From Psilocybe cubensis (lineage: Eukaryota), in the NCBI GenBank assembly GCA_017499595.2, contig CM039003.1, positions 744,001-808,000 on the forward strand: DNA of 64,000 nt, given 5' to 3'. Position numbers and translations under genes: made by a program. Shown piece by piece: positions 20,876 through 21,158 of the stretch; the stretch's first letter is position 1; every line of letters starts with the position of its first letter. Under the pieces are notes generated by a model, which saw only the letters and a program-made list of their open reading frames with translations, ran no database searches and was not told the DNA's origin.

Positions 20876-21158
20876 ATGCAATTCCCAAGTTTCTCAATCG
20901 CTCTTAAAGCCCTAGTTGCCGCCATGATGTTGGCCACCGTTATGGCCAGCCCCGTCCCCGGAGAGGATCAACGTAAGTTCTACTTGACTGTACAGCATTA
21001 ATTCTACTAAGCCATATGTGATATTATCTGTAGAGTGTAAGCATAATACTTTACCCATGACTTCACTATGGCAAGTACAATGATGGTTTCGTCCTGATAT
21101 TTTAGGCACCAGCTCAGCATGCCGCCAACCATGTGGACCTGGCATTACAAGCTGCTAA
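20876..21158 (+). CDS. Secreted 4-Cys peptide precursor, copy 2 (50 aa): MQFPSFSIALKALVAAMMLATVMASPVPGEDQQCTSSACRQPCGPGITSC; exons 20876-20972, 21034-21036, 21106-21158
   Basis: GTAAGT donor, TAG|AGT|GTAAG micro-exon, TAG acceptor. TATATAA at 20804. Paralogous architecture. Confidence 0.85.

Follow-up and report, generated by a model that had tools for sequence, protein, structure and literature searches.

A 64,000-nucleotide (nt) window of the Psilocybe cubensis genome (GenBank assembly GCA_017499595.2, contig CM039003.1, positions 744,001 to 808,000 of the forward strand; all coordinates below are those of this whole stretch) contains four paralogous genes with one common layout, in which a signal-peptide exon, a first intron, a 3-nt exon of the form NNT (N, any nucleotide), a second intron and a short, stop-bearing exon follow one another. 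Comparison of the four sequences makes it fairly probable that the 3-nt micro-exon is real and is included constitutively in all four genes, which are unannotated and would each encode a small secreted peptide. The focal gene, copy 2, and the other three copies were parsed by script into the following parts.

Copy 2:
20876..20972, forward strand: coding part of exon 1, 97 nt, with the start codon, predicted signal peptide and a short pro-like stretch, ending in phase 1
20973..21033, forward strand: intron 1, 61 nt, with donor GTAAGT, branch-like TACTAAG and acceptor TGTAG
21034..21036, forward strand: micro-exon AGT, of which AG and the last base of exon 1 form a glutamine (Gln) codon and T opens the first cysteine (Cys) codon
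21037..21105, forward strand: intron 2, 69 nt, with donor GTAAGC, acceptor TTTTAG and a weak branch candidate, CTGAT, whose A lies 8 nt from the intron end
21106..21158, forward strand: coding part of exon 3, in which GC completes Cys1 and is followed by 16 codons with Cys2 to Cys4 and the stop codon TAA

Copy 1:
17334..17433, forward strand: coding part of exon 1, 100 nt, ATG at 17334
17434..17498, forward strand: intron 1, 65 nt
17499..17501, forward strand: micro-exon CTT
17502..17569, forward strand: intron 2, 68 nt
17570..17625, forward strand: coding part of exon 3 with the stop codon

Copy 3:
58917..59013, reverse strand: coding part of exon 1, 97 nt, ATG at 59013
58851..58916, reverse strand: intron 1, 66 nt, donor GTGAGT
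58848..58850, reverse strand: micro-exon CTT
58779..58847, reverse strand: intron 2, 69 nt, donor GTAAAT, branch-like CTGAC
58726..58778, reverse strand: coding part of exon 3 with the stop codon

Copy 4:
60524..60620, reverse strand: coding part of exon 1, 97 nt, ATG at 60620
60461..60523, reverse strand: intron 1, 63 nt, branch-like TACTAAC
60458..60460, reverse strand: micro-exon TTT
60388..60457, reverse strand: intron 2, 70 nt, branch-like CTGAC
60326..60387, reverse strand: coding part of exon 3 with the stop codon

All four copies have an exon 1 that ends in phase 1, an intron 1 of 61–66 nt and an intron 2 of 68–70 nt. When the sites were re-read and parsed, the four micro-exon positions and codons given in the initial annotation were all found to be correct. 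Its description of the local signals also agrees with the sequence: TAG, NNT and GTAA follow one another at each copy, with TGTAG preceding and GTAA following the three bases in all four, and a branch-like TACTAAG or TACTAAC is present upstream of every micro-exon.

The composite signal TGTAG-NN-T-GTAA (TGTAGNNTGTAA) has four matches in the window, all of them at the four genes, where 0.07 would be expected; none of 100 shuffled sequences reached four. A looser pattern, TAGNNTGTAAG, also gives four matches (0.19 expected), corresponding to three of the copies and a site at 4208–4218; it misses copy 3, which has the donor GTAAAT. The match at 4208–4218 lies in a region unrelated to the peptide genes and was rejected as a chance occurrence. 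Since the copies are paralogs, the fourfold recurrence of the signal is inherited and does not represent four independent events. The point that goes beyond chance is that the splice signals stayed fixed while the neighbouring intron sequence diverged.

In the four-way alignment, invariant columns account for all five positions of the TGTAG acceptor, 4/5 of the intron-2 donor, 5/6 of the intron-1 donor and 6/10 of the branch region of intron 1. The corresponding counts are 10/30, 5/17, 10/40 and 10/29 (25–33%) for four mid-intron stretches and 5/64 for exon 3. Pairwise identity among the copies is 72–92% in exon 1, 54–76% in the introns and 49–66% in exon 3, and the fastest-changing part of the locus is thus the mature-peptide exon, which changes faster than the introns. 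With the splice signals conserved and the remainder drifted, every signal for two separate introns appears therefore to have been kept. The donors of intron 2 are GTAAGA, GTAAGC, GTAAAT and GTAAGC in copies 1 to 4, and the donors of local introns verified by RNA (see below) include GTGAGC and GTGAGT. Branch-like sites (CTAAT, CTGAC and CTGAC) are found 22–24 nt from the intron-2 acceptor in three of the copies, the remaining one, copy 2, having only the CTGAT at 8 nt.

Within the micro-exon a single column of three is invariant: the first two bases vary and the final T is fixed, as the initial annotation had proposed. Exon 3 begins with GT in copy 1 and with GC in the other three, so that T and these two bases form TGT or TGC, again as claimed, and a cysteine codon results in every copy. 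The codon that is finished by the two variable bases specifies Pro, Gln, Ala and Ile, respectively. Every copy has T as the base just before the donor of intron 2, compared with G, G and C at the three verified local introns and C, C, G and A at intron 1. Because these other donors follow G, C or A, donor preference does not explain the T, and constraint on the cysteine codon fits. The suggestion that the three bases are a real exon under constraint is supported by this comparison, in which the 5/5 acceptor columns, the 4/5 donor columns, the fixed T and the Cys parity of all four products point in the same direction. No clear similarity between the two introns was detected that would indicate that intron 2 arose as a duplicate of intron 1, the local alignment scores being matched by 59, 114, 38 and 22 of 500 shuffles for copies 1 to 4.

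The coding outcomes of the possible splice forms were computed for each copy. Full splicing gives products of 52, 50, 50 and 53 amino acids (aa), all with four cysteines, at spacings of x4-x1-x5, x4-x3-x6, x5-x2-x7 and x4-x8-x6; the stop codon directly follows the fourth cysteine in copies 2–4. Skipping of the micro-exon shortens the product by one residue and leaves three cysteines, with the first cysteine codon replaced by CGT, CGC, GGC or AGC (Arg, Arg, Gly and Ser), in agreement with the outcome foreseen in the initial annotation. Retention of intron 1 leads to a stop after 35–41 aa with no cysteine, and retention of intron 2 leads to a stop after 37–48 aa with one or two cysteines.

Contigs of two RNA runs of this species (X4 and X5) and of DNA runs were compared over 14000–24900, the part of the window that holds copies 1 and 2. 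X4 and X5 are recognized as RNA because their contigs skip introns of neighbouring genes; these are GT..AG introns at 14437/14487, 14873/14939 and 23619/23682, and the DNA runs do not skip them. The three verified introns are 49, 65 and 62 nt long, and the sizes of both introns of the peptide genes match the range of verified local introns, a range defined by these three only. Merging the interval between exon 1 and exon 3 into a single intron would give a length of 133–137 nt. DNA contigs of X1 span copy 1 (15314–19054) and copy 2 (20920–21841, with seven differing letters); a separate data set thus contains both copies, introns included, an observation with no bearing on splicing.

The peptide encoded by exon 1 reads as a signal peptide in all four copies, with a hydrophobic core (12-aa Kyte-Doolittle mean 1.94–2.84; 2.35 for copy 2) followed by a small-x-Ala sequence and then by Ser-Pro. 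Start codon, splice signals, cysteines and stop codon are intact in all four diverged copies, and a TATATAA box is located about 70 nt upstream of the ATG in each, within a conserved promoter block.

20804..20810, forward strand: TATATAA box of copy 2, about 70 nt upstream of the ATG

These features suggest the following model. The genes would be transcribed and each intron recognized on its own by intron definition, as suggested by its length and signals, with the 3 nt always included. Given the general way in which splice sites are recognized, an acceptor and the next donor lying 3 nt apart could hardly be occupied together, and the two introns would probably be excised one after the other. 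The codon completed by the first two bases of the micro-exon would then be free to vary, and the T would join the GT or GC of exon 3 in the codon of the first cysteine. Exon 1 would supply the signal peptide and a short acidic or polar stretch, and the last coding exon a hypervariable tail of 17–20 residues with four cysteines. We infer that the product is a secreted peptide of about 25–30 residues with two disulfides.

Relatives of these peptides are few. A search with the 41-aa open reading frame that reads from exon 1 into intron 1 gave no counterpart of 22–72 aa among 5.8 billion predicted proteins. A profile of the four exon-1 peptides, run against 1.84 billion representative proteins, returned three matches with expectation values (E) up to 0.001, one of which is a true relative. 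This is a hypothetical protein of P. cubensis (P0001; 102 aa, E 3.9e-9) encoded on another large contig, which contains the whole signal-peptide exon at residues 47–77; judged by its sequence, it is probably a fifth paralog that was mis-modelled by the gene finder. The other two matches, P0002 and P0003, were ruled out as repeat proteins that match only profile positions 18–32. In metagenome contigs, a peptide pattern matched 228 stretches, none of which was confirmed, and a degenerate DNA pattern of exon 1 had no matches. The protein and profile searches placed the four peptides in no named Pfam or other annotated family, the sole relative being hypothetical. A literature search on small secreted, hypervariable or cysteine-rich peptides of fungi or Psilocybe gave no matching named family, and one on micro-exons, alternative splicing or the secretome of P. 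cubensis had no P. cubensis paper among the matches listed.

Several points weigh against constitutive inclusion in functional secreted-peptide genes. The X4 and X5 RNA contigs have zero cover at 16184–18731 (copy 1) and 20552–21279 (copy 2), blanks that are silent on expression. The only annotated relative, P0001, is modelled without the four-cysteine tail and has an upstream extension and an unrelated tail, and the protein, profile and metagenome searches returned no ortholog from another species. Conservation was measured among paralogs of a single genome. The signals of intron 2 are weaker in two copies, with a poor branch candidate only 8 nt from the acceptor in copy 2 and the weaker donor GTAAAT in copy 3. 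Three bases preserve the frame whether they are included or skipped, and the frame is no argument for either; the even number of cysteines serves both as an argument for inclusion and as a property of the deduced product, and the two uses are not independent. Finally, secretion was assessed by a hydropathy check and a reading of the cleavage region by eye.

Two other explanations of the same sequences appear unlikely. In the first, which we regard as improbable, splicing always passes over the 3 nt: exon 1 is joined directly to exon 3 across one long intron, the peptides have three cysteines, and the TGTAG..T GTAA arrangement is a relic or an intronic element. The frame is preserved by such a joint, an intron of 133–137 nt is possible in fungi, and no RNA contradicts it. 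However, no part of the interval is better conserved than its internal acceptor and donor and the branch-like site upstream of them, and this would be left unexplained, as would the preservation of T-G-Y (Y, pyrimidine) in all four copies and the fact that each of the flanking parts has the size of a typical local intron. In the second, for which the probability is likewise low, the copies are duplicates that are silent or in decay, in surroundings rich in repeats, and their three-exon appearance was inherited from a dead ancestor. The missing annotation, the absence of an annotated ortholog, the lack of RNA cover at copies 1 and 2 and the low-GC (guanine plus cytosine), repeat-rich setting are all consistent with such a state. 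Against it stand the start codons, signal exons, splice signals and four cysteines, which are intact in every copy, and the stop directly behind the last cysteine in copies 2–4, at identities of only 49–66% in exon 3 and 54–76% in the introns. Intact features in copies as diverged as these argue against dead DNA, since decay would have broken some of them.

The splice switch put forward in the initial annotation, in which the micro-exon is alternatively included, its omission yields a three-cysteine isoform with a free thiol that may dimerise, and the ratio of the two is regulated, is very unlikely: it has in its favour the in-frame skipping with changed cysteine parity in all four copies, the weaker intron-2 branch site of copy 2 and GTAAAT donor of copy 3 and the regulated micro-exon switch described for Xlr2 of the filamentous fungus Trichoderma virens (PMC11121469), but the X4 and X5 contigs contain RNA of neither isoform at copies 1 and 2, the four-copy alignment displays no conserved intron element besides ordinary splice signals, the residue replacing Cys1 varies (Arg, Arg, Gly and Ser), a secreted mini-peptide with an odd number of cysteines is not obviously a selected product, and the sequence requires no regulation. 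Its prior is also low, because exon skipping makes up 0.5% of alternative splicing events in the mushroom Coprinopsis cinerea, compared with 67.5% for retained introns, according to its long-read annotation, where skipping is the rarest kind (PMC12230235). We would likewise give little credence to the broader form of the idea, in which regulated or stochastic inclusion lets the family toggle between a closed form with two disulfides and one with an odd number of cysteines, able to form cross-links with partners or with itself. If true, it would matter more than a constitutive micro-exon: redox chemistry would be switched by the splicing of one residue, and this would be the first fungal case in which an alternative 3-nt exon has a chemical rationale. 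The probability that is left falls to mixtures, for example predominant inclusion with unregulated trace skipping.

Constitutive inclusion of the micro-exon, the reading preferred here, can be compared with several known systems. Cone-snail toxins combine a conserved signal with a hypervariable cysteine framework, and the micro-exon genes of Schistosoma build secreted proteins from symmetric micro-exons. The four genes resemble superfamilies of the cone-snail type in their conserved signal exon, in a cysteine-rich mature part that diverges faster than the introns and in a boundary between the two that falls at introns. In contrast to the P. cubensis genes, these are animal systems, to which they bear no sequence relationship; diversifying selection is not demonstrated here, the sequences being too short and diverged for a rate test. 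In recursive splicing and in spliceosomal twin introns, an acceptor lies almost against a donor, and what is left is either no exon or an interrupted splice signal. The adjacency of acceptor and donor and the probably ordered excisions are shared features; in the genes described here, however, 3 nt would stay in the messenger RNA and each intron is complete by itself. An alternatively spliced 3-bp micro-exon that is in frame and changes one residue was reportedly described by Chang et al. in 2020 for homothorax of Drosophila, an animal developmental gene.

Among fungi, the closest likeness is to C. cinerea, also an Agaricomycete with short introns. In its long-read annotation, 1,165 gene models have an internal exon no longer than 15 nt, and these tiny exons include 13 of a single nucleotide, 57 of two and 27 of three, the last in 26 genes (PMC12230235). 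Internal exons of 3 nt between canonical introns are therefore rare but established in mushroom genes, and the four genes add to a known phenomenon. In both cases, gene finders miss such exons, leaving broken or absent models. The C. cinerea exons are supported by long reads, whereas those in P. cubensis were recognized by sequence comparison only; the present set also differs from the one catalogued there in consisting of very small secreted-peptide genes in which a cysteine codon is split and omission causes no premature stop. The authors of the T. virens Xlr2 study state that functional micro-exons were previously undescribed in filamentous fungi (PMC11121469). Xlr2 is the only regulated fungal case that was found in the literature search, and it shares with the peptide genes a micro-exon whose inclusion or omission alters the protein. 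It is an ascomycete transcription factor for which both isoforms are shown by RNA and by function (PMC11121469), and nothing comparable is shown here.

Other features of the four genes were also noted. A candidate third intron is located in the 3′ untranslated region (UTR) of copies 2–4, 58–63 nt long and starting 3–8 nt past the stop codon, with conserved signals that consist of GTAAGT or GTGACT, then ACTGAT, ACTAAC or TTGAAC, and then YAG.

21162..21224, forward strand: candidate third intron in the 3′ UTR of copy 2, 3 nt past the stop codon, with signals conserved in copies 2–4; the acceptor picked by the script ends at 21239
58660..58722, reverse strand: candidate third intron in the 3′ UTR of copy 3, with conserved signals
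60260..60317, reverse strand: candidate third intron in the 3′ UTR of copy 4, with conserved signals

In copy 1, the donor-like site of this candidate intron is altered and the reading frame is four codons longer. Copy 1 also has two acceptors for intron 2 that are 6 nt apart (17564–17576; TAG and then GTGTAG), with an alternative start of exon 3 at 17576; GT or GC opens exon 3 either way and completes a cysteine codon, and the products differ by two residues. Further upstream, at about 135–150 nt from the ATG, all four copies have a conserved block, AGATACCTT.T.AT (20725–20745 in copy 2), which could be a common regulatory site.

Between copies 2 and 3, a blastn match of 356 nt with 93% identity (20660–21012 against 58874–59229) runs through the promoter and exon 1 and stops 40 nt into intron 1. 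The identity of these two copies across intron 1, intron 2 and exon 3 is 64–71%. The pattern resembles that left by gene conversion or by recombination, with a boundary within intron 1, by which promoter and signal exon would have been swapped relative to the mature-peptide exon.

The peptide genes sit in a repeat-rich, structurally variable region of lower GC content (0.41–0.44). An element of about 1.25 kilobases (19420–20665) with 62-nt inverted repeats at its ends (19420–19481 and 20604–20665, 94% complementary) lies about 210 nt upstream of the ATG of copy 2. DNA contigs of X1 and X3 join 19412/19414 straight to 20660; the element is missing from them and is therefore a polymorphic insertion, transposon-like with its terminal inverted repeats, beside the promoter. 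It is repeated in the genome, since its depth is many-fold above that of the flanks. A 10- to 40-fold excess of depth is seen in the DNA contig sets at 18732–19459, 19824–20915 and 21644–22735, and strain-specific joints occur, for example from 21841 to 22598 (756 nt skipped) in X1 and X3. The neighbouring open reading frame at 1090–3528 belongs to the Bms1/Tsr1 family (Pfam) and is 100% identical to P. cubensis Bms1; its next-best matches are from Flammula alnicola (79%) and P. cyanescens (77%).

By analogy, the conserved signal, the hypervariable mature part and the repeat-rich setting suggest a role of the peptides in defence or interaction. The most useful by-product of the analysis is the unannotated P. 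cubensis peptide gene family itself, which is invisible to current annotation because its gene models need a 3-nt exon; gene finders overlook short secreted peptides in intron-dense fungi. If confirmed, the four genes would provide a compact example of a micro-exon that is kept by a single coding base, and confirmation by complementary DNA would extend the gene set of P. cubensis by a family of very small, secreted disulfide peptides with no fewer than five members.
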